In this document: piece by piece, positions 173 through 35,102 of the stretch
How positions within the stretch are numbered: position 1 is the stretch's first letter
Layout of the letters: every line of letters starts with the position of its first letter
Assembly: GCF_002113885.1 (NCBI RefSeq)
Contig: NW_018407955.1
Location: forward strand, 800,480 to 836,648
Direction of reading: 5' to 3'
Length of the DNA: 36,169 nt
Origin: Mizuhopecten yessoensis
Taxonomy: Eukaryota
The notes under the pieces: generated by a model
The model's database searches: none
The model's input: the letters and a program-made list of their open reading frames with translations, nothing else
What the model was told of the DNA's origin: nothing
Program-made: the position numbers and the translations under genes

Positions 173-1189
173 AATTGTTTCACATTGGGGCATCTTCAAA
201 ATCCAAGGGCTCAACCCTCGATACATATACCTTCTCTACACACTTGAAATTATGTCCTTACAAAACCGAAGACTCACGGTAAGCTTTTTGATTCGTTAAA
301 AGTATAAAAGCATAACCAATCACTAGGCTGATACCTGTCCTTTGAAGATTACCAGGGAGCTTCAAAGAATGTCGATTTAACGATTTTGCTGCCAAATGTT
401 TTCTTTGATCTCCATCAATGAAAGTCTACTTTTATAATCCTCAATGTGTTGCGTAAAAAAACTTTGATTTTGTTACGACATATATTCCAGGAGTGTAGAA
501 AAGATATCTATATTGAGAATGGCACTCTTGGATATCAAAGAGAGTGTCAGGGTGAATTGTAACGTTACATAGGATGACACAATAAAGAGTTACATCCCAG
601 TCATCTGTCGATGTGAAAGTTAGATGCATAAAACAAAATATCATAAAAAAATTGTTGTAACTACGTGTTTAAAAATGTTCTTTAGATATCTTTCTCTGAT
701 AAGTAGCAAATAATAACTACTTTCTACAAAGACATTGTTTAAACGATATTTTCTTTGTGCATCATTACAGTCATGGTACGAATATACAGTGAAACCAAGA
801 AACCAATCTCATGCATATGGCCCATGGCTGTGAGTATTTCCTACATTAAATTTTATGTATTGATGTAATCCCTTTTTTTGAAGAAAACTTCCAAAGAACA
901 CCAGGTTGTACCGATATTCTGTCTAATCAGGACAATAAAGTATATCCCATAGTATATATGTGTGTCCGATTAAATGGTTTTTGCCTACCCTATATTGAAA
1001 TATAGATTTATTTTTTCGATTCCAATTTTTATCATATTTATTTGCACTTTCTTCTGATGACTCTGTGAGAGTACCTGTGTTCATCATGCATATCGATATT
1101 TGTACCAGTCACAGAGACCACATACATTACATCAACATAAAACCTGCTGCAAGTGAATTTGTGTTAATTAATTAACACATGGAAAATAC

Positions 1190-1962: not shown

Positions 1963-2043
1963 CACACCACCAAAGGTTCACTTTTACACTTGAGATCCAA
2001 CGGCCAAAAGTAATTCAAAATTTCAGAAGTACGGTATACATAC

Positions 2044-2123
2044 TTCTAGAATGTCTGTGATAAAGTCTGGTCCCAGCATCAGACACAGAGATTTCATTGC
2101 ACCCTCCTTCTTAGGTTTACCAG
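2044..2123 (-). CDS. MVP: MVP exon 16 ((A)GKPKKEGAMKSLCLMLGPDFITDILE)
   Basis: Acceptor attctag, donor GAA|GTATGT. Matches [29 protein letters not shown]. 80 nt. Confidence 0.9.
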
Positions 2124-2965
2124 CTAGAATATAAAAAAAACTCGAATAAAAACTTAAATTGTACAGAAACATACAAACAAATTAATAATAATAATAATTC
2201 AAGGTTCTTAGATACATGTACCGCTTTATCACAACCTAGTTTGTAGGTCATCTCAAAGTGGTTCACAAATTATTTTCCCTGGTTATAGGGCCTTTGCAAC
2301 CAGCCAATATGTTTCTCAACTCCCTGGGGAGCATACAGCCAGTGCTGCCATTTCTAGGTCGCATTTGATTGTGACTATGTAATTACAGATTATATATTTA
2401 TCGCCAAAAACAAGCCTAATTGGGGGGAAAATGCTGGCCGTCAAAATAAGTTCTTAATTCCTTGCAGTCAAACATACCTCAAAAATAAGCTGTTCCTGAA
2501 AAAAGGCCTAATATTCCAAGGAAAACATCATGTCATGAATTGATGTCCTGTGGTCAAACACCAGGTATTTCCAATTGTTACAATTTAAATTTGTTTATTG
2601 ACATTTCCTGGTTTCCATCAGTATTTATCTCTATCCTTGCTAGTTAGTCTGACAATCATAGTGATCTCATTTCTTGCAATGAAAATAAGCAATTCTTGTC
2701 TTACTGTCTAAAAGGCTACGGAAATAAGACTACAAAAATGTATATGATAATAAGCCAGCTTTGAAAATAAGCCCGAGATCCCTTACTATATACAGAAAAT
2801 AAACCTTAGATTCCTTACTTAAAATAGAAAATAAGCCCGAGATTCCTTCCTAAAAATAAAAAATAAGCCACAGCTTATTATCAAGATTTTAGGGTATATA
2901 TAACATGCTTAAAGTTCAAAGTACCATACCAGCAGATCAGAAAGTTTGTATCCTTTTGACCTTAC

Positions 2966-3062
2966 CACTTAGGCTGAGGACATTGAAATTTTCGTGAGGT
3001 CCGAGGATGACCAGGTCTGGTCCGAACACGACACGTGCTGTCTTCTCCAGGTAATTATACAC
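2966..3062 (-). CDS. MVP: MVP exon 15 ([32 protein letters not shown]-)
   Basis: Acceptor atcaacag, donor G|GTAAGG. Matches [32 protein letters not shown]. 97 nt. Overlaps ORF 2937..3128(-). Confidence 0.9.
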
Positions 3063-3414
3063 CTGTTGATGCAGGTAAAAATATTTGATAAATACACCTG
3101 TCTCAACTAAAAACAGAAAAACACTCATCTCAAAAATAAAGTTGGATATTATTTTATGGTTACAGTTCAGTTATAAATAAAGTTTTGACCATGTCAACAA
3201 ATGTCTTTTCTTCTTAATGAATTTTTAAAACTATTCCCAGGATCTCCTTTTTAACCCTGATCATCTGAAGAGTGACAGTTAAGTCATTTTACATGAGATA
3301 CATAATTATTCATTACAACAAGAAATGGCAATTGTACATTAAAATCATGTATAACTCATTATGATATACCGGTACATACAAATTGTTGAAGTTGTCTCCC
3401 TTAAACATCTTTAA

Positions 3415-3497
3415 CTCATTCACCCCTGAAATTTCATAATAAACTATACCAACCTTTGAATTGGAAGAGTTCAAATGTGTCTTCAGGGGTGAATGAG
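3415..3497. mobile_element. TTAA-flanked hairpin mini-element (20-bp TIR ctcattcacccctgaa.. / ..ttcaggggtgaatgag), copy Z1
   Basis: TTAA at 3411-3414 and 3498-3501. The same element appears at 35021-35102. Related copies lie at 11704-11769, 26712-26808 and 18660-18735. Confidence 0.65.
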
Positions 3498-11290: not shown

Positions 11291-11703
11291 TAAATCTACA
11301 TATGTATTTCAACTCCTGCTATATTAGCGTAAAACCCTGGAAAATTTTACTGTTTGCTATATTAGCATATATGTATATTAGGCATTATGTCATTTCGTGG
11401 ATTAACCAAACTTGTGCACATTTTAAATTGATATGAATCTGTGATATTAATATACAAAACCTCTTATATATTGATGTATCTTACTCACCATTAGTATGTT
11501 CTACTAATTTTGAGGATGTGGTAGATTAGCCTTTGGCTGTACATGTATTATCCTCGTTAAATGAAGTTTATTATTATTTATTATTATTAATGCAGGTGGT
11601 CTCTTTACACAGGTGGTCTCTTAATACAAGTTAATTTCCAAATGAAATATATAACTGCAATGGGGAAATTAAAAGTGGTCTCTTAACACAAGTGGACTTT
11701 TAA

Positions 11704-11769
11704 CCCCAAAGTCACATTTGAACCTTACCAAATCAAAGACTGGGCAAGTCCATCTTAAAAATGTAGGGG
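11704..11769. mobile_element. TTAA-flanked mini-element, related family Y (CCCCaaagtcacatttgaacc...aatgtaGGGG)
   Basis: TTAA at 11700-11703 and 11770-11773. The core aagtcacatttgaaccttaccaaatcaaagactgggcaagtcca is shared with 26735-26800 and with the rc of 18680-18735. Confidence 0.55.
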
Positions 11770-11846
11770 TTAAACGATCAGTTATATATTCTAGAGCTGT
11801 GTACTTTGTAATTTGCACTTTTGACCAAGACTTCTATAATACTGAC

Positions 11847-13911: not shown

Positions 13912-14372
13912 AACTTTGTCAGGACCATGAGCTGATCATTCCTAGACCAATTTTAAGTGAGATCGGCCTATTAGAACTTAGTAGCAAAATAGCGGCCATG
14001 GCAGCCAAATTGTATTTCTGATTGACCCGAAAAATAACAACACTTTGTCAGGACCATGAGGCGATCATTCCTACCAACTTTCAGTTCAATCGGTCCAGCA
14101 GAACTTGACTTTAAGTTTGAAATAGGTTTTCAAAATGGCGGCCGTGGCGGCCATATTGGATTTCTGATCGACCCGAAAAATAACAACACTTTGTCAGGAC
14201 CATGAGGCGATCATTCCTACCAACTTTCAGTTCAATCGGCCCAGCAGAACTTGACTTTAAGTTTGAAATGTAAAATGTTAACGGACGACGGATGACAGAC
14301 GACGGACGACGACGGACGAAAACGGATAGCAATAGGTCACTTGAGCTAAAGCTCAGGTGACCTAAAAAGGCA
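13912..14372 (+). repeat. Tandem-repeat element: ~146-bp unit x ~2.6 followed by an ACGG-rich tract and a terminal hairpin (aggtcacttgag..ctcaggtgacct)
   Basis: Units start at 13912, 14042 and 14188 (actttgtcaggaccatgaggcgatcattcctaccaa...). Tail 14271-14372 is acggacgacggatgacagacgacggacgacgacggacgaaaacgg + hairpin + ctaaaaa. Confidence 0.75.
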
Positions 14373-16170: not shown

Positions 16171-16409
16171 TCTTTAATTTTGTCAAAGCATCTTACAGGC
16201 CCCGGGATCATGACACAATTTAAGACTGAAGTGTTTGCTTAGCCAATCACATATAACGTTACATTTCATGAAATTATTGTGATTGGTTGACTTCAGACAA
16301 TTTTTGACTGAAGATCGATTCATGATCTCGTGAATCAAAATCAGAACCATTGGATTCCAAGGTAGGCTATACAGTTGAAACTGGAGGGATGAGAGATGAA
16401 ATGACTTAC

Positions 16410-16634
16410 CGCTTCAGGAGAAGGGAAATAGGTGAGGGGGCCTTTCAGCTGCCACTGGTCCCCAGCCTGATATTTCCCCATCTCATTTTCAAAGTCCACC
16501 AGTGCTCTCAGTCTGATTGCATGGTTAGCCTTTACCGTAGGGAGGGGCTTCAAGGCTGGCGCATAGCTTGACCTACCTGTTTGGTACTCAGGGGCCCCAC
16601 TAAGGACCTCGCCAGGCAACAGGGGAAAGGGCTC
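16410..16634 (-). CDS. MVP: MVP exon 4 (EPFPLLPGEVL...ANHAIRLRALVDFENEMGKYQAGDQWQLKGPLTYFPSPEA)
   Basis: Acceptor attgtag, donor GCG|GTAAGT. Matches DPFPLYPGEVL...[35 protein letters not shown]. 225 nt, phase 0 to 0. Overlaps six-frame ORF 16341..16619(-). Confidence 0.9.
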
Positions 16635-18090: not shown

Positions 18091-18225
18091 AGCCCCATTG
18101 CATTTTCACAATAAGAATACTGTTGTTGCTTCATTTTTGTTAATTACATCATTGTCAGCTTTTCACAAAAGTTTTGCAAGTATGGTTTTCTTTTTCGATA
18201 GGAGTTGTCAAAGCTATAGTAATGC

Positions 18226-18611
18226 CATCCTCGATATCCAGGGGTTACGCTCACTTTCCCTCTCTGCACCCCTGGAATATGTCATAGCAAAATTGAAGGC
18301 ATGAACATAGCTGTTTGATTGGTCTCAGGTAAACAAAACTGAACAATAGCTAGGCTGATACCTGTCCTTTGAAGATTACAAAGGCGAGCCACCTGACTTC
18401 AAAGCGGATTTAGCCTGTCAATTTTTACTGTTATGTGACCATGATATTCTTTTGATGTACATCAAACTAGTCTTCTTGTTTCAGCAACAAGGTGGGAGCT
18501 TTGTTGCAGAAACAAGAAGACTAGTTTGATGTACATCAAAAGAATATCACGGTCATTTGCTTCCAGGGGTGTAGAGAGGAAAGTGAGCATAACCCCTGGA
18601 TATTGAGGATG
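18226..18611. mobile_element. MITE copy 1 (~70-bp TIRs, internal 105-bp palindrome), in the MVP intron between exons 2 and 3
   Basis: Left TIR catcctcgatatccaggggttacgctcactttccctctctgcacccctggaa. Right TIR is its reverse complement, ending ...ccaggggtgtagagaggaaagtgagcataacccctggatattgaggatg. Degenerate 9-bp flanks tagtaatgc / cagtattgc. Perfect 40-bp inverted repeat at 18445-18549. Confidence 0.75.
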
Positions 18612-18659
18612 CAGTATTGCTAGAAAATACAAGAATCTTTAAGAAATTTCATACCTAGA

Positions 18660-18735
18660 TACTTTTGTAAACTCATTCACCCCTACATTTATAAACTGGA
18701 CTTGCCCAGTCTTTGATTTGGTAGGGTTGAAATGT
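18660..18735. repeat. Family Y mini-element copy (inverted orientation)
   Basis: rc reads cctgaaagccacatttcaaccctaccaaatcaaagactgggcaagtccagtttataaatgtaggggtgaatgag. Confidence 0.5.
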
Positions 18736-18792
18736 GGCTTTCAGGGTACATGTACGGTATATGGTTAATAAATGTTTAACAAATATACATAC

Positions 18793-18926
18793 ATGCAAGG
18801 GTTCTCTATGACACAGTAATGCCCTGGAGGGACTTTGATCATAGGCAGGGGCCCTCGATGTAGCTTCTCATTGTTCTTCAGAACAACTGTCTTTGGACCG
18901 ATATCAATACTGGTGATATTCCTGTT
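18793..18926 (-). CDS. MVP: MVP exon 2 (NRNITSIDIGPKTVVLKNNEKLHRGPLPMIKVPPGHYCVIENPC-)
   Basis: Acceptor tttttttaacag, donor CAT|GTATGT. Matches human [44 protein letters not shown]. 134 nt, ends phase 2. Confidence 0.85.
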
Positions 18927-20326
18927 CTGTTAAAAAAAATCAAAAAAATCTGATGATTAATTAATTAATTCAAACTACTCTCAAACTACATCAGACTTAT
19001 GACCAGTGCAAATATTAGTACTTGCCTAAAACATTGTCTACATATCCTATCTTACAGTTTGTTACCAAGTGTACTGTCGGTGTAGTATACCTTGACTATC
19101 TCTCCCATGAACATCTCTTGATTGTTCAGAAGATGTTGTACAAAACACTGTGTTAAAGCCGGACTACAGACAAACAACTGATATCACACCATGGTATAAC
19201 AACTTAACATGCTGTTTGGGCAGGTGAGCTAAAAATGAGAAAAAAAGTGATTGATTCAAACCAAAATTTCGCTTTAATCTATTAGAAGTCAGCAGAGTTA
19301 ATTAGCACTAATTCAGTATAATTGAGCAAGAATCCTGCTCATGAGGCAAAGGAAAAAGAAATACTTTTACCCATTTTGCTAGCCAGGTTTCTAGCCTTAC
19401 CTATAGTGTTTGTACCAGGAAAAGTCAGGATTGCATAATTCAATGAAACATCCTATTTTGTTATGGATCAGATGTACATATGCACAAAACCTTTACCTTT
19501 TAAATGTCCGACTTTGAAGTCCATTGTAAAACATGATATACTATGGGTTGCAAACTTTATATCATAAGTCGTTAAGAAAACATTTATCATTGTCTTGGAT
19601 TGAACATATATATATATATATTTCTGTATCTTGGTATCGACCTAATAAACTTATTTCATGATAAATAACATTAATTTATATTATGTGTTATTATTTACAA
19701 TTTGCTGGCTTAATGCGTTGTATATATTCTCAGAACACAGTTTACTAAATTAGTAATTGGTTATGGTCGATCACAGAAAATATTGCTCTGCCATTTTTAG
19801 TCCTTGCTTACTTTTATGTGTGCATTCTCTATTTTTAGTTTGCTTGCATGATTTTGTTTTTATGTTGTTGTAAAGATATGCTTGTATGTATTCGGTTAAA
19901 AGCTCATTAGAGCTTATGTTTGTAGTTTGTAACTATACCGAATTAAAATAAAACTTTCATATATATATAATCATATATACATGATTAACCGATTGGGAAC
20001 TCTTTTTTATGACCACCTTCTGTAATGAACTTAGTGTTAGCACATTCTCCGGGCCTCTAATTACGTGCAAAAAAACATGGAAAGCATAAAATAAGATATA
20101 AACAAAGTGCACGCAGAGATTTTATGGTAAAAAAAAACAAAAAACTATCGATAGTATACTTTCACGACGGCAACTTTCATAGCCTATGGACATCGTGCTG
20201 AGTCGACAACTTCGACATTGTCACAACCAGGGCAGTTGCATTGACAACTGTCAAAAACTGTCAGAAATTCCCCATAAATATTGCTTTATATTAATTGACA
20301 ATTGTACAAATTTGTATTTTACTTAC

Positions 20327-20386
20327 TAGATCAGTCACATGCACATAAAAATGTGGCTTCAGACCGATAATGCTGCCGGTAGCCAT
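20327..20386 (-). CDS. MVP: MVP exon 1 (start codon; MATGSIIGLKPHFYVHVTDL)
   Basis: ATG = rc of 20384-20386, ~45 bp downstream of TATA. Matches the [20 protein letters not shown] N-terminus of MVP. Donor GTAAGT (rc of 20321-20326), phase 0. Confidence 0.75.
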
Positions 20387-21639: not shown

Positions 21640-22040
21640 ATCTCACCTGCTAGTTACGTATGTGGAATATACCGGCAAAAGTCAGTAGGTCATAGATATA
21701 GGTCAACGTCTCTTCACTGACTTACACACACTTAGGAGGTTAACATTCCTTGCCAGGTGTTGCAGTTAAAAGTATGTCACTTGTTCAAAACATTTTTTTG
21801 TGACGACATCATCAATGATTGATGTTTTTACGTGACCATCTGCATTTATAATTATGATGTCATAATAAATAATTCCTCCTGGTGGTCAAGTGACGCAGTT
21901 GTTAGCACATCCGCCTTTCACCAAGAAAGCCAGGATTTGACTCCCATTTGGACTTGAAAATGGCTGGGGTCTCCTGCCTGGCCTTTTAGGTTTTCTTCTG
22001 TTACTCTGCTTGCCTCTAATATTAGACTCCCTGCATGTTA
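21640..22040 (+). repeat. Composite ~400-bp repeat with an embedded tRNA-derived SINE head (GGTGACGCAGTTGTTAGCAC...GGATTTGACTCCCA), copy 1
   Basis: Aligns with 29150-29590 along its length (aaaagtcagtaggtcatagatataggtcaa...gacatcatcaatgattga...cctttcaccaag...catttggacttgaaaa..ggggtctcctgcctggc). Confidence 0.7.
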
Positions 22041-23353: not shown

Positions 23354-24540
23354 TTACAGATAGCTGCACAGTTTCATAGAGAACAGATGTGCAATGATAA
23401 GACAGGCCGTTCCATATATCCACGGTTCGGTGAAGGAATGAGTGTTTCCGGATAATTTGAGTTCGTGTCCTCTGGTGGTGGTGGTGGTGGTGGTGTTCTT
23501 GTTAGGTTTGATGAAAGTCGACACCTCGGGATCATACTTCTCGGTCATGATTTTATATAGTTCTATCATGTCTCCTCTGGCTCTTCGATATGCCAATGTT
23601 GGTAATTTCAGGCGTTGAAGTCTCTCGGGGTAGGATAGATTAGCCATTCCGGGTATTAGCTTGGTAGCTCTCCTTTGTACATTTTCTATCGATTCTATCT
23701 GTTTAATGAGATGGGGGCTCCAGACTTGGTTGACATACTCTAGATGTGGTCTCACAAGTCCTTTGTATACAGCTGTGAATGTTGTCAGATCCATGTATTC
23801 CATAGTACGCCTTATTACACCCATTATAGAGTTGGCTTTGTTGATTTTTTCAGATATATGTACATTAAATGCTAATTTGTTGTCAATGGTGACTCCAATA
23901 TCTTTCTCATGTTCTGTATAGGGAAGTTCTTTCCCATCATCTAGGTTGTAGGTGAAGTTGTCAATATCACTGTTGCCAATTCGCATTGCTTTGCATTTGT
24001 CTTGGTGGAAAAATAGAAGCCACTTTTTGTTCCATGATTGAGCTTTCAGCAGGTCTTCCTGTAGGCCCTCGCAATCTTGGGTGTTACATATAGCACGGTA
24101 GAATTTTGTGTCATCTGCGAAAAGGTATGTGTTGGTTTCCGTACTTGTTATATTCGGGAGGTCATTTACAAATAGGACTGGGCCTAGGACGGATCCTTGT
24201 GGAATACCACTGCTCACCTCCTTCCAACATGACGTGTCTCCATTTATTGTTACGCGTTGTTTGCGATTTAGAAGAAAGGCTTTAATCCAGCTCGTGATTT
24301 TACCCGTAAATCCGTACATGCTCATTTTATGGACGAGTCGGTGGTGAGGGACCTTGTCAAATGCTTTCATAAAGTCACAGTACAGCACATCAATGCATCC
24401 TCCTGCATTACATCAAGAATTTATTTTCATCCAGTGGTTAATTACTTGAATTAACTGTAATACAGTTGATCTTTCTTGGATAAACCCAAATTGTTTCTTG
24501 CTGAATAATTGCTGCATAGGGACAGTGAAATAATGAACGC
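23354..24540 (-). mobile_element. CR1/L2-like non-LTR retrotransposon (LINE) fragment. Reverse transcriptase domain, 5'-truncated, one in-frame stop.
   Basis: ORF 23354..24388(-) has RT motifs LYCDFMKAFDKVPH, GIPQGSVLGPVLF and FADD, and the CR1-type C-terminal motif RLQRLKLPTLAYRRARGDMIELYKI. The frame continues upstream (QQLFSKKQFGFIQERSTVLQL) across a TGA near 24410. No endonuclease domain upstream. (GGT)7 encodes poly-Thr near the C-terminus (23471-23492). Confidence 0.85.
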
Positions 24541-26711: not shown

Positions 26712-26808
26712 AAGGGGATACTTAACCCACTCATCCGTAAAGTCACATTTGAACCTTACCCAATCATAGACTGGGCAAGTCCACTTTTAAACATGTAGGG
26801 GTGAATAA
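26712..26808. repeat. Family Y mini-element copy
   Basis: cttaacccactcatccgtaaagtcacatttgaaccttacccaatcatagactgggcaagtccacttttaaacatgtaggggtgaataag. Confidence 0.5.
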
Positions 26809-27417
26809 GATAAAAATGTGCTGTCCATAATGCAGTCTTGCGGAGACCTAGAAAAAGGAAGGATCAGAAATGGGCCAGAGTCAAATTACTACAAGTGATG
26901 TTAAATATTTTTCTGTTTAATTTGAAATATATTTGTTCTTCATGCTGGGGTTACTGGTATTTAGACTGCAAGATAAATAGATCTGATGTCTATATGTCTT
27001 TTTTTTCTTTATTTCATGTTTCCAAATTTAACATTTAAACATGGATTTTCAGTAAATTCACAATGTGCTACTCCTTAAAAAAGACACCATTTATACAAAT
27101 ATTTCAATGCCCTGAGGCTGATGTGTGTGATACTAATAGCGAAGCTCTGCTTCAGAGCTCTAAAAATGATAGTTCATTTAAAATAAATTGATTATTTTCA
27201 TGTGTTTTTTTTAACTGGACATTTTTTACATTTAGAAAAGAATCTTTAAAGACTGTGTCAATTTTGTTTTAACACACCAACTAACACCATGACTGAAACT
27301 CATGGACTCTCATAGACACCCTATGTGAGCACTGGAATTCTTTTGTCTTTGGTATAATTTGCAAACAGAAAATTATCTTAAGGATCCTTGTCCCACTGCA
27401 CTGCGGTTTTTCCTACA

Positions 27418-27883: not shown

Positions 27884-28066
27884 CACGAGCAATTTCACAA
27901 ATGAATTCCTGTTTTTGCCAGGGAAAAGATTAAAAGAATCTTCACAAATGAATTCCTGTTTTTGCCAGGGAAATGATTAAAAGAATCTTCACAAATGAAT
28001 TCCTGTTTTTGCCAGGGAATGATTTAAAGAATCTTCACAAATGAATTCTTGTTTTTGACGGAGAAA
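27884..28066. repeat. Minisatellite, ~46-bp unit x4 (tcacaaatgaattcctgtttttgccagggaaaagattaaaagaatct)
   Basis: Four consecutive units; the last is diverged. Confidence 0.85.
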
Positions 28067-28695
28067 AAGATAAATAGATATTTTAAAGGTAAAGTTGTGT
28101 ATAAACATTTAAGGTACCACAACATCATTTATAATTACATGAGAAGTGTTCAACTCGGATGGTTTTTGACATTTGACCTTTTTTGATTATTCTCCCCTTA
28201 AGATAAAAGGATGGAGGTTGACCAAAAGGACTTTTTCTGGCTAAGAGAAACTTCTAACTCGCCAACCTTTTGAAATTTCAGTGGGGAAGATTTTGCATGC
28301 TAAAAGTAAAATCATAAATAAAATGTATGTATATACCTCTTAGAGACAAAAAATCTTTTATATTGACATATTTTGAGTTGTTCCTTCAGATAAAATCATT
28401 AGATCTTAGACTATAGAAATAGATTAGCAAATTCTGTGGTTGGAAATACTAAATTGAAGGGTAAAAAATTGTGAGTCTCTGTCCTAAATAGGGAGAGTTG
28501 GCAAGTATGAACTTCCACTGTAAAATTTCGGATTATTCTGCCTTTTATATAGAAGATGAAGCAATTAAAAGGATTTAACAATGTATATAGTATATGAGTA
28601 TTGAGTCGGAATGAAACTGCAAATTGTGTTGATACATATATAGCTTGTAGGTTTAACCTGATAATAAAGGTTTTATTGCCTTACCGGTCACATCA

Positions 28696-29042
28696 CATCC
28701 TGATATCCAGGGGTTACGCTCACTTTCGCTCTCTACACCCCTGGAATATGTCATAGTAAAATTGAAGGATCAGTGTGCGCCCCCTCGCCCCCTCGTTGAT
28801 GAGACAAGAAGACTAGTTCGATCCTTTGATATACATCAAAAGAATCTCGCGGTCAGGTAATGGTAAAAAATGACAGGACAGATATCAGCCTAACGATTGG
28901 TCAGTTTTTTTTTACCTTAGACCATTCAAACAGCTATCTTCGTGCCTTCAATTTTGCTATAACATATTCCAGGGGTGTAGAGAGCGAAAGTGAGCGTAAC
29001 CCCTGGATATCGAGGAAGCGTAACCCCTGGATAGCGAGGATG
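28696..29042. mobile_element. MITE copy 2 with a perfect 9-bp target-site duplication GTCACATCA (28687-28695 and 29043-29051)
   Basis: Same TIRs as copy 1 (catcctgatatccaggggttacgctcactttcgctctctacacccctggaa ... ccaggggtgtagagagcgaaagtgagcgtaacccctggatagcgaggatg). Internal 24-bp tandem duplication in the right TIR. Identical 9-bp direct flanks. Confidence 0.8.
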
Positions 29043-29149
29043 GTCACATCAATGTTGATTAGATTAGATTTTCATCTAAAAAATACAAATAAAACATCAA
29101 AAGAATTCTGGTTGCTTCGGAACAGGAAATGACAATCAATTTTTCACCT

Positions 29150-29191: not shown

Positions 29192-29223
<32 letters not shown>

Positions 29224-29590
29224 ATACCTGTGGGAAAAGGTCAGTAGGTCATAGATATAGGTCAAACATCTCTATCGATTAGCACACACTCAGGGTGTTA
29301 ACACACCTTGGCAGGTATTGCAATTCAAAGAGATGTCACTAGTTAAAAAAATTGGTGTTATGACATCATCAATGGTTGAGGTTTAATAGTAACCATGTGC
29401 ATTGATGATATTCATAATAAATCTTTTCTCCTGGAAGTCAGGTGGCGCAGTGGTTAACACTTCCTCCTTTCACCAAGACACCTAAGATTTGAATCCCATT
29501 TGGACTTGAAAATTCCTGGGGTCTCCTGCCTGGCTATTCAGGTTTTCTTCAGGTACTCTAGTGACCAGAGCTTCTTTCATGATTGTTGTA
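29150..29590 (+). repeat. Composite SINE-containing repeat, copy 2, carrying a 30-nt poly-C tract at 29193-29222
   Basis: Same family as 21640-22040. A partial third copy lies at 29920-30060. Confidence 0.7.
29193..29222. repeat. poly-C homopolymer (30 nt)
   Basis: Uninterrupted C run. A second (C)14 run lies at 30361-30374, next to a gggggcatg motif. Confidence 0.95.
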
Positions 29591-33560: not shown

Positions 33561-35020
33561 ACCAGCTGTTCTACAGTAACATCTAGGATGAAAGTAAGGG
33601 GATATTACTGTGTATACGAAAAACCATGGTGCAGAGGGATAGTCTTAGTTGTCTTTGTTGATCAGTTTTAATCCTTTCATATCTAGTTTCAATTTTAAAT
33701 TTCAATATGTTTTGAAAATATGAAGATTTTCCTAAATTCGCTGTTAACCAAATTAACATTTCATCATTTGAGTCCTGGAAATTCATATCCTTACTAAGGA
33801 GGCACTGGGAAAGGTTGGTGTTTACTAAATCCATTGATATATGGAATGTTTACGCAGGATGGGTGAGTCTCCAAAATTCTTTTGTAAAATCTCTCTAAGC
33901 TGACCAATGATAGGGAGATTATGTTCTAATGGTCTCTAATTTAAAAGAGTGAAGCCTTGAAATTTGAAAAAATGTTTTAATTTGAGGAAAGCCTTGAGAG
34001 TTATAAAAGCCTTGAAATTTCTGTTTATACATATATACTTGTTGTACATCCTGGGATACATACATGTACAGAAGCCATTTAGGTAGCATGTGTGTAATTA
34101 AGATAATTAAAAACACCCCAATTAGTTGAGTTTCCTAAATAAAGCTTACGCAATTAATTGGTTTTACCAGTAATTTTTTTTCCTTACTTTTCTTCTACCG
34201 TGAACTTATCTGAGACTTCTAATAATAATAATAATATACAACATTTATATAGCGCTTTATATAATTTGTAAAATTACTCTAAGGCGTTTTACAACATACG
34301 GATAATAGTAATGGTTAAAATTGTGAAAACAAACAACAAAGCCTTGCAATCACTTTCATACATTTAACAAGCAATGTGCACATAATTGAACAAATAAAAG
34401 GGTGGTATTTACATGACGTCTTTGCAAAGATTCTAAAATTAATCAGAACCCTGTTTGACTCGAAAATGTTTGAAATATGTCTACTTTCTGCTGATATTGA
34501 TCGGTTATCACCAAATATTAGCCAAAATACCGAAGTGTCCCTTTCAGGGTACAGCTAGCACACCGATTCAAAGGCCTACGTAACGCTGATGGTATTTCGG
34601 GTTCTATTTATAGAACCACACACCTGAAATATCAACTTGTAATAGAAATGAAAAGTTGATATTATATATTTATGAAAAATGAACAAACATTTTTGAACTG
34701 ATAGTATGGTATAAAGAACATTGATATTTATCTAAAAAGTGTCCTGATTTGGGAACAGTGACGTTAAGTTAAAAAGTCTAATTGATTTTTGATGTGCATA
34801 GTTTTCCGGTCTTACATCCAAGATGGCCCCAATGGCATCTGATTGTCACATTTACCCTTGTAAAGCTTTTTTGGAAAACCCTTTTATACTTTCTGGGAGT
34901 AATACATCCTATAAATAAAATGACAGCATTTCAAATTTCTGGATTTAAGATGGCTTCCTTGGCCGCTTACTTTCAGAGAGATATTTACTGCCCTAGTTTA
35001 GTCCTATTGGGCCAATTTAT

Positions 35021-35102
35021 CTCATTCATCCCTGAAGACACATTTGAATGCTTCCAATTCAATGGTTGGAATAGTTCATTATGAAATTTCAGGGTGAATG
35101 GG
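35021..35102. mobile_element. TTAA-flanked hairpin mini-element, copy Z2
   Basis: ctcattcatccctgaagacacatttgaatgcttccaattcaatggttggaatagttcattatgaaatttcagggtgaatggg, flanked by TTAT / TTAA. Aligns with the rc of 3415-3497. Confidence 0.6.

Follow-up and report, generated by a model that had tools for sequence, protein, structure and literature searches.

A probable family of MITEs with 9-bp target-site duplications in and around the MVP gene of a bivalve mollusc

Among the MITEs of bivalves, the pearl-type elements are characterized by a tandem-repeat core. The MITE DTC84 of Donax trunculus (PMC3879986) is, like the element described here, short, non-coding, bounded by terminal inverted repeats (TIRs) and often intronic. 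Families of the DTC84 type have a tandem-repeat core and a link to satellite DNA, whereas the present element has no internal array, its one tandem duplication being the 24 bp at a single terminus of copy 2. MITEs are abundant in bivalves, in which the Mutator superfamily (MULE) is among the richer DDE superfamilies (PMC10294476). MULEs have target-site duplications (TSDs) of 8-11 bp, and many animal groups, some of them specific for molluscs, combine a TSD of 9 bp with TIRs of 18-613 bp (PMC6446971). Animal MULE families with TSDs of 8-9 bp include non-autonomous derivatives, terminal or subterminal motifs influence their transposition, and animal MULEs excise via hairpins on the flanking DNA (PMC5225508, PMC5499845).

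The MULE-derived MITEs, such as the Muta derivatives of Aedes aegypti and the Tm1 elements of Meloidogyne, resemble the present element in several aspects. Their TSDs measure 8-10 bp, most often 9 (PMC5225508, PMC3169594, PMC6446971), and the MITE-like Tm1 elements, which belong to the Phantom group of MULEs, have TSDs of 9 bp (PMC3169594). As in the element studied here, short repeats or palindromic motifs give structure to the interior of their long TIRs; they also fold back, lack an open reading frame and lie in or near genes. Their TIRs, however, exceed 100 bp and have arrays of 9-15-bp tandem subterminal repeats, while the TIRs of this element are about 73 bp long with a single inverted pair, TCCAGGGGT / ACCCCTGGA. 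Merlin-derived MITEs are likewise small (mean of about 383 bp in insects, PMC5199201) and resemble it in having a TSD of 8-9 bp and TIRs of tens to hundreds of bp, but Merlin TIRs end in a conserved 5'-GG that is not present here.

The window, that is, the whole stretch of 36,169 nucleotides that was analysed, contains three copies of the element, and one more was found on a metagenome contig, L004. On the basis of their TIRs, a TSD of fixed length, small size, the lack of coding capacity and dispersed copies, we consider these copies to constitute a family of non-autonomous cut-and-paste DNA transposons (MITEs) of about 350-390 bp in a bivalve mollusc genome, with a probability of about 0.85. 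The sequence-only reading, which was confined to two copies in the window, had already proposed a MITE; the TIRs, a 9-bp TSD in three copies, the unrelated flanks, the non-coding character and the existence of further copies all speak in favour of that proposal.

Copy 2 extends over 347 bp (28696-29042). Its TIRs pair over 67 nt (28702-28768 with 28945-29011) at 97% complementarity, and reach about 73 nt once the terminal CATCCT/AGGATG is counted, so that the element ends in CATCC...GGATG. The 73-nt left TIR (28696-28768, plus strand; CATCCTGATATCCAGGGGTTACGC...AAATTGAAGG), delimited by an inverted-repeat search and by the TIR core, contains a nested inverted motif, TCCAGGGGT at 28706-28714 and ACCCCTGGA at 28737-28745, which forms a 9-nt inverted repeat with a gap of 22 nt. 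It is followed by a non-coding internal region (28769-28944, plus strand), the stop-free translations of which are without a Pfam match. Within this interior, at 28800-28855, lies the motif ACAAGAAGACTAGTT..GATATACATCAAAAGAAT that is common to copies 1 and 2; it had been noticed from the sequence alone, and was recovered in the comparison of both copies. The right TIR (28945-29042, plus strand) consists of a core (28945-29016) and a 24-bp tandem duplication: the terminal unit is doubled at the right end, at 28993-29016 and 29017-29040 (period 24, 2 copies, 95% matches). The TSD adjoins the outer unit.

This TSD is the perfect 9-bp direct repeat GTCACATCA, which lies immediately outside the element at 28687-28695 on the left and, identically, at 29043-29051 on the right. 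A 10-nt flank match, GGTCACATCA, takes in the final G of the TIR. Among 200,000 pairs of 9-mers drawn at random from the window, with a spacing like that of the MITEs, there was no 9/9 match, which puts the chance frequency below 5e-6. Thus copy 2 indeed combines TIRs of around 70 bp (67-73 nt at 97%) with a flawless 9-bp duplication, as had been claimed. The expected empty site, in which 28680-28695 is joined to 29052 onward, would read TTACCGGTCACATCAATGTTGATT. The search for paralogous empty sites that had been suggested as a check turned up none within the window, nor any flank repeats, and exact look-ups of the window's open reading frames for other assemblies of the locus gave no match on record.

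No coding sequence was detected around copy 2. About 640 bp to its left there is a tandem repeat (27894-28057) with 3.5 copies of a 47-bp unit and 96% matches. On the right, at a distance of about 150 bp, lies a run of 30 C (29193-29222), directly followed by a repeat of about 320 bp (29233-29559) that is 79-84% identical to 21674-22007; the two stretches probably represent another interspersed repeat with a homopolymer tail. A likeness of 13-19 nt between the right flank (29094-29106) and the internal motif of the MITE was dismissed as being at chance level, as 4 of 200 shuffles scored equally high.

Copy 1 (18226-18611, minus strand) measures 386 bp and has its interior inverted with respect to copy 2. 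Its left TIR lies at 18226-18299 and its right TIR at 18561-18611; they pair over 34 nt at 94% and 22 nt at 91%, or about 52 nt at 92% with one indel. The right TIR is without its inner 20 nt or so. The TIR length of about 70 bp that had been assigned to the whole family therefore holds for copy 2 but not for copy 1, with its shortened right arm. The stretch 18228-18338 is the reverse complement of 28906-29016 in copy 2 (93% over 111 nt). Copy 1 furthermore contains an imperfect internal palindrome (18436-18555) with 55-nt arms (18436-18490 and 18501-18555) that are 96% complementary (2 mismatches) and separated by a 10-nt spacer; the perfect palindrome of 105 bp that had been reported for this copy was thus an overstatement. 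The palindrome is an inverted duplication of a segment that copy 2 possesses only once (28795-28855). As a derived variant, copy 1 has a second, inverted 'AAGAAGACTAGTTTGATGTACATCAAAAGAAT' segment of 55 nt in place of the GC-rich segment of copy 2 and of the inner part of one TIR.

The flanks of copy 1, previously described as degenerate over 9 bp, are a decayed TSD: TAGTAATGC on the left (18217-18225) and CAGTATTGC on the right (18612-18620) agree at 7 of 9 positions, and in the set of 200,000 random pairs an agreement of 7/9 or better was reached with a frequency of 0.0019. When the TIRs are taken to define the boundaries, 9 bp is the best duplication length for copies 1 and 2, while an 8-bp reading leaves one end base unpaired.

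A sensitive BLASTN of copies 1 and 2 against the window disclosed copy 3 (191-543, minus strand; 353 bp), which is old and diverged. Alignments of 110-127 nt with copies 1 and 2 show an identity of 72-78%, and the 58-nt TIRs of copy 3 itself are 71% complementary. The copy begins with CATCT, and in a four-way alignment its ends line up with the CATCC...GGATG of the other copies. Its 9-bp flanks, ACATTGGGG (182-190) and GTGTCAGGG (544-552), are identical at only 4 of 9 positions, with all five mismatches being transitions; the chance of no transversion with at least 4 identities is 0.0018, a value to be read in the light of the pattern having been recognised post hoc. The three full copies hence show a 9-bp TSD at identical boundaries in different stages of preservation (9/9, 7/9, and 4/9 with transitions only).

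Copies outside the window were sought by means of six-frame translations of the TIR, used as a chimeric query against 5.8 billion proteins, since gene callers sometimes call spurious open reading frames across repeats. A single true match was obtained. This protein (P0121) is the product of a spurious reading frame through a TIR and ends in SSISRGYAHFRSLHPSNMS, corresponding to one TIR frame. On its contig, Ga0072491_1002638 (L004), a fourth copy occupies 1068-1272; it starts at the common terminus CATCCTCGATATC and shares 92% identity with copy 2 (143 nt) and 85% with copy 1 (214 nt), until another repeat cuts it short near 1272. The contig contains in 1-600 and 1300-1700 a tandem or interspersed repeat of about 180 bp (...TCTGGAGCATCCTTGGGTTAAGGGGA.TCAATTTTGTATAAAC...), which also interrupts the MITE copy, and in 2030-3469 a long open reading frame, the tail of which is repetitive (...HTEQLS...). 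Ga0072491 is a metagenome from the gills of Acesta excavata, a file clam living in deep water (PMC8755941), so that the contig is almost certainly host DNA. Judged by this sequence, the family is also present in A. excavata.

Other searches were negative or misleading. A scan of JGI metagenome contigs and GTDB genomes with the pattern TCCAGGGGTTAN{15,25}CACCCCTGGA gave no eukaryotic copy; the Acesta copy was missed because it has CCCTCGAA instead of CCCTGGAA. The scan did yield bacterial matches on two soil contigs (L001 and L002) and in a Gemmata MAG (L003). These are GC-rich hairpin repeats and were rejected as relatives; we judge them to be chance matches because the pattern itself forces 21 shared bases. 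The hairpins (L001 560-800; L002 960-1100 and 5000-5140; L003 4020-4070) contain ATCCAGGGGTTACGC...CACCCCTGGAA, resembling the TIR core of the clam element. In the soil metagenome Ga0126376, from which L001 and L002 originate, the hairpin is found within a larger palindromic repeat (GTTCTGTCGCCC.TTACAGGGC...), and on L002 this palindromic repeat flanks a block of about 4 kb with small cassette-like open reading frames. Viral contigs were scanned twice, with TIR and subterminal patterns, and yielded 0 matches, and Rfam at the gathering threshold gave no match in the window.

Copies beyond the original pair have come to light, the third at 191-543 and the fourth on L004, contrary to the absence of further copies by which the sequence-only reading would have been refuted. 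A rival view is that the loci are of a non-mobile nature, arising from local segmental duplication of a hairpin-forming sequence or from chance palindromes. In its favour, there is only a handful of copies, and three of them lie within one 36-kb window. However, the flanks of all four copies are mutually unrelated while their termini align exactly from CATCC, and the similarity ends precisely at CATCC...GGATG in every copy. Moreover, the length of the TSD is fixed at three loci, and the extra copy on L004, which comes from a separate data set, is surrounded by other DNA. The 25-nt TIR core ATATCCAGGGGTTACGCTCACTTTC, allowing up to 3 mismatches, occurs exactly four times in the window, once in each arm of copies 1 and 2; none is expected in shuffled sequence and none is found there, which makes chance palindromes a poor explanation. 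With these boundaries, the TSDs and the L004 copy, a non-mobile origin is effectively refuted, and the copies are best regarded as transposed MITEs.

In the cut-and-paste pathway, the length of the TSD reflects the staggered cut of the target. By analogy with this known pathway, a transposase encoded elsewhere in the genome would recognise the ends of the element and excise it in trans. The 3' ends of the element would then be joined to target DNA cut with a stagger of 9 bp, the repair of which would yield the 9-bp TSD. The activity of the family has spanned a long time, with copy 3 as an old insertion, copy 1 as one of intermediate age and copy 2 as the latest. That copy 1 is older than copy 2, as initially supposed, is supported by its 7/9 TSD and TIR complementarity of about 92%, as compared to the perfect TSD and 97% of copy 2. 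The changes between arms and between copies are often of the CpG-to-TpG/CpA type, for instance TACGC to TATGC and CTCGAT to CTCAAT (18586-18603 in the right arm of copy 1; 1078-1092 on L004). This pattern is consistent with methylation-driven decay of an element residing within a gene body.

The consensus plan, a 73-nt TIR, an interior of about 200 bp without coding capacity and a second 73-nt TIR, is displayed by copies 2 and 3 and by the preserved part of the L004 copy. The sizes of the window copies (347, 386 and 353 bp) are all below 800 bp. The TIR terminus reads 5'-CATCCTCGATATCCAGGGGTTACGCTCAC...-3'. The termini are 5'-CATCC...GGATG-3' in copies 1 and 2 and on L004, and the initial 5'-CA is common to copies 1-3 and L004. 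Each TIR contains the nested inverted pair (G)ATATCCAGGGGT ... ACCCCTGGAATAT, spaced by 22 nt, resulting in four such motifs per element and five in copy 2. These motifs are plausible candidates for transposase-binding sites. The potential to fold back is very strong: folding of whole elements as single strands with DNA parameters gave -97 kcal/mol (z = -16.6) and, for copy 1, -126 kcal/mol (z = -20.9).

The element itself is devoid of coding capacity. Stop-free translations of the copies gave no Pfam match, and a HMMER search with a 71-aa stop-free translation of the right half of copy 2 against 1.84 billion representative proteins retrieved four low-complexity or repetitive proteins, none of them related. 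As had been stated before, there is no transposase in the window either: among all stop-free segments of 45 aa or more, on either strand, a Pfam scan detected only MVP (Vault) domains and one RVT_1. The latter stems from a LINE fragment on the minus strand (23357-24412; 352-aa stop-free segment, RVT_1 E = 2e-16), located between the MVP gene and copy 2. Neither in the window nor in the pattern scans of metagenome, genome and viral collections was an autonomous partner or a transposase with these TIRs found, and the assignment to a superfamily consequently depends on TSD length, TIR length and prevalence in the host.

These three criteria point to a DDE transposase of the Mutator superfamily as the most likely mobilising enzyme, with odds somewhat better than even. 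The 9-bp TSD falls in the MULE range of 8-11 bp. A TIR of 73 nt with a nested inverted 9-nt motif is inside the reported MULE range, though below the 'typical' length, often quoted as '>100 bp' (PMC5225508). The sequence-only reading had left the choice between MULE and Merlin. This was the right shortlist for a TSD of 9 bp, of which the MULE half is now favoured. Mobilisation by a Merlin (IS1595-like) transposase would also accommodate the TSD, as Merlin elements have TSDs of 8 or 9 bp and TIRs of 24-462 bp, but these TIRs carry a conserved terminal 5'-GG-3' (PMC8101967), while the present element starts with 5'-CA in each of copies 1-3 and on L004. In addition, Merlin belongs to the superfamilies with the poorest representation in bivalves, with 63 elements, 3 of them curated, against 39 curated MULEs (PMC10294476). 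Because of the absence of the 5'-GG terminus and this rarity, we regard Merlin as improbable.

A stronger competitor, albeit clearly less likely than a MULE, is another or undescribed cut-and-paste lineage, whether a group related to hAT, P or Transib that has 5'-CA termini and happens to cut with a stagger of 9 bp, or Rehavkus. Termini of the type 5'-CA...TG-3', as observed here, are encountered more typically in hAT, P, Transib and CACTA elements than at the classical Mu ends, and the nested-palindrome architecture of the TIR is not diagnostic for any superfamily. On the other hand, the consistent 9 bp in three copies does not fit the TSD lengths of hAT, P or Transib. According to the TSD rules of the Repbase/Wicker classification, hAT elements have 8 bp and Transib elements 5 bp; hAT was rejected on this ground, given that the best duplication is 9 bp in copies 1 and 2. 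For the P element, the TSD is 7-8 bp (PMC5199201). Rehavkus, which is treated as an outgroup to the MULEs, does have a 9-bp TSD and TIRs of 26-400 bp, but is reported from arthropods and annelids and not from molluscs (PMC6446971). A MULE transposase thus remains the preferred candidate.

The window is of eukaryotic origin. Minus-strand exons carry the Pfam domains Vault, Vault_3 and Vault_4, and are collinear with bivalve MVP proteins from about 16628 down to 1190, with upstream exons at about 18795-18929. The sequence MATGSIIGLKPHFYVHVTDL, near 20330-20386 on the minus strand, is likely to be the first MVP coding exon. In total, the window covers roughly the N-terminal half to two-thirds of MVP. 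When the concatenated exons were used as a query, the best named relative was that of Mytilus galloprovincialis (53% identity), while a short single exon as protein query gave no candidates; a Logan transcript is 65-92% identical on most MVP exons. Taken together with the A. excavata copy, these identities would suggest a pteriomorph bivalve as the host, probably a limid.

Copy 1 is situated in an MVP intron, between the minus-strand exons at about 18795-18929 and 16383-16628, in agreement with the earlier assignment of one copy to such an intron. Copy 3 lies downstream of the exon at 1190-1252, and no MVP exon match was found below 1190; it is presumably located in the next intron, because about 300 MVP residues are still missing beyond this exon. 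Copy 2, finally, is positioned about 8.3 kb upstream of the MVP start. Other repeats share this environment. An MVP intron contains a tandem repeat (13985-14269) with 2 copies of a 146-bp unit and 94% matches. A second MITE-like family of about 80-85 bp is represented by five copies (3413-3495, 11696-11773, 18670-18753, 26739-26816 and 35017-35094), one of which is separated from the right end of copy 1 by no more than some 60 bp. Its best-kept copy, TTAA|CTCATTCACCCCTGAA...TTCAGGGGTGAATGAG|TTAA, has TIRs of about 16 nt and an apparent TTAA duplication, and is of the piggyBac or Kolobok type.

It could be imagined that the intronic copies, which are predicted to form stable hairpins (-97 to -126 kcal/mol), may give rise to double-stranded RNA or small RNAs from the MVP pre-mRNA, although this is a side possibility. 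A quite unlikely scenario would be that the family is mobilised by a transposase lineage that is undescribed in molluscs. Such a lineage could be a distinct clade of the MULE/Rehavkus type, or a new group in which 5'-CA termini and a nested-palindrome TIR go together with staggered cuts of 9 bp. The family might even be active to this day in the Limidae, the file clams, as could be hinted at by the perfect TSD of copy 2 and by the A. excavata copy with its identity of about 92%.

DNA transposons and MITEs are known to abound in the genomes of bivalves (PMC10294476), and to these the present work adds one family that is probably without an existing name, and that is distinguished by a clean 9-bp TSD. 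Its presence is unsurprising for a bivalve genome and its importance lies mainly in annotation. The family can be masked and annotated in limid genomes; copy 2, being young and having a perfect TSD, is a candidate presence/absence marker; and the 73-bp TIR may be used as a probe for the autonomous element.
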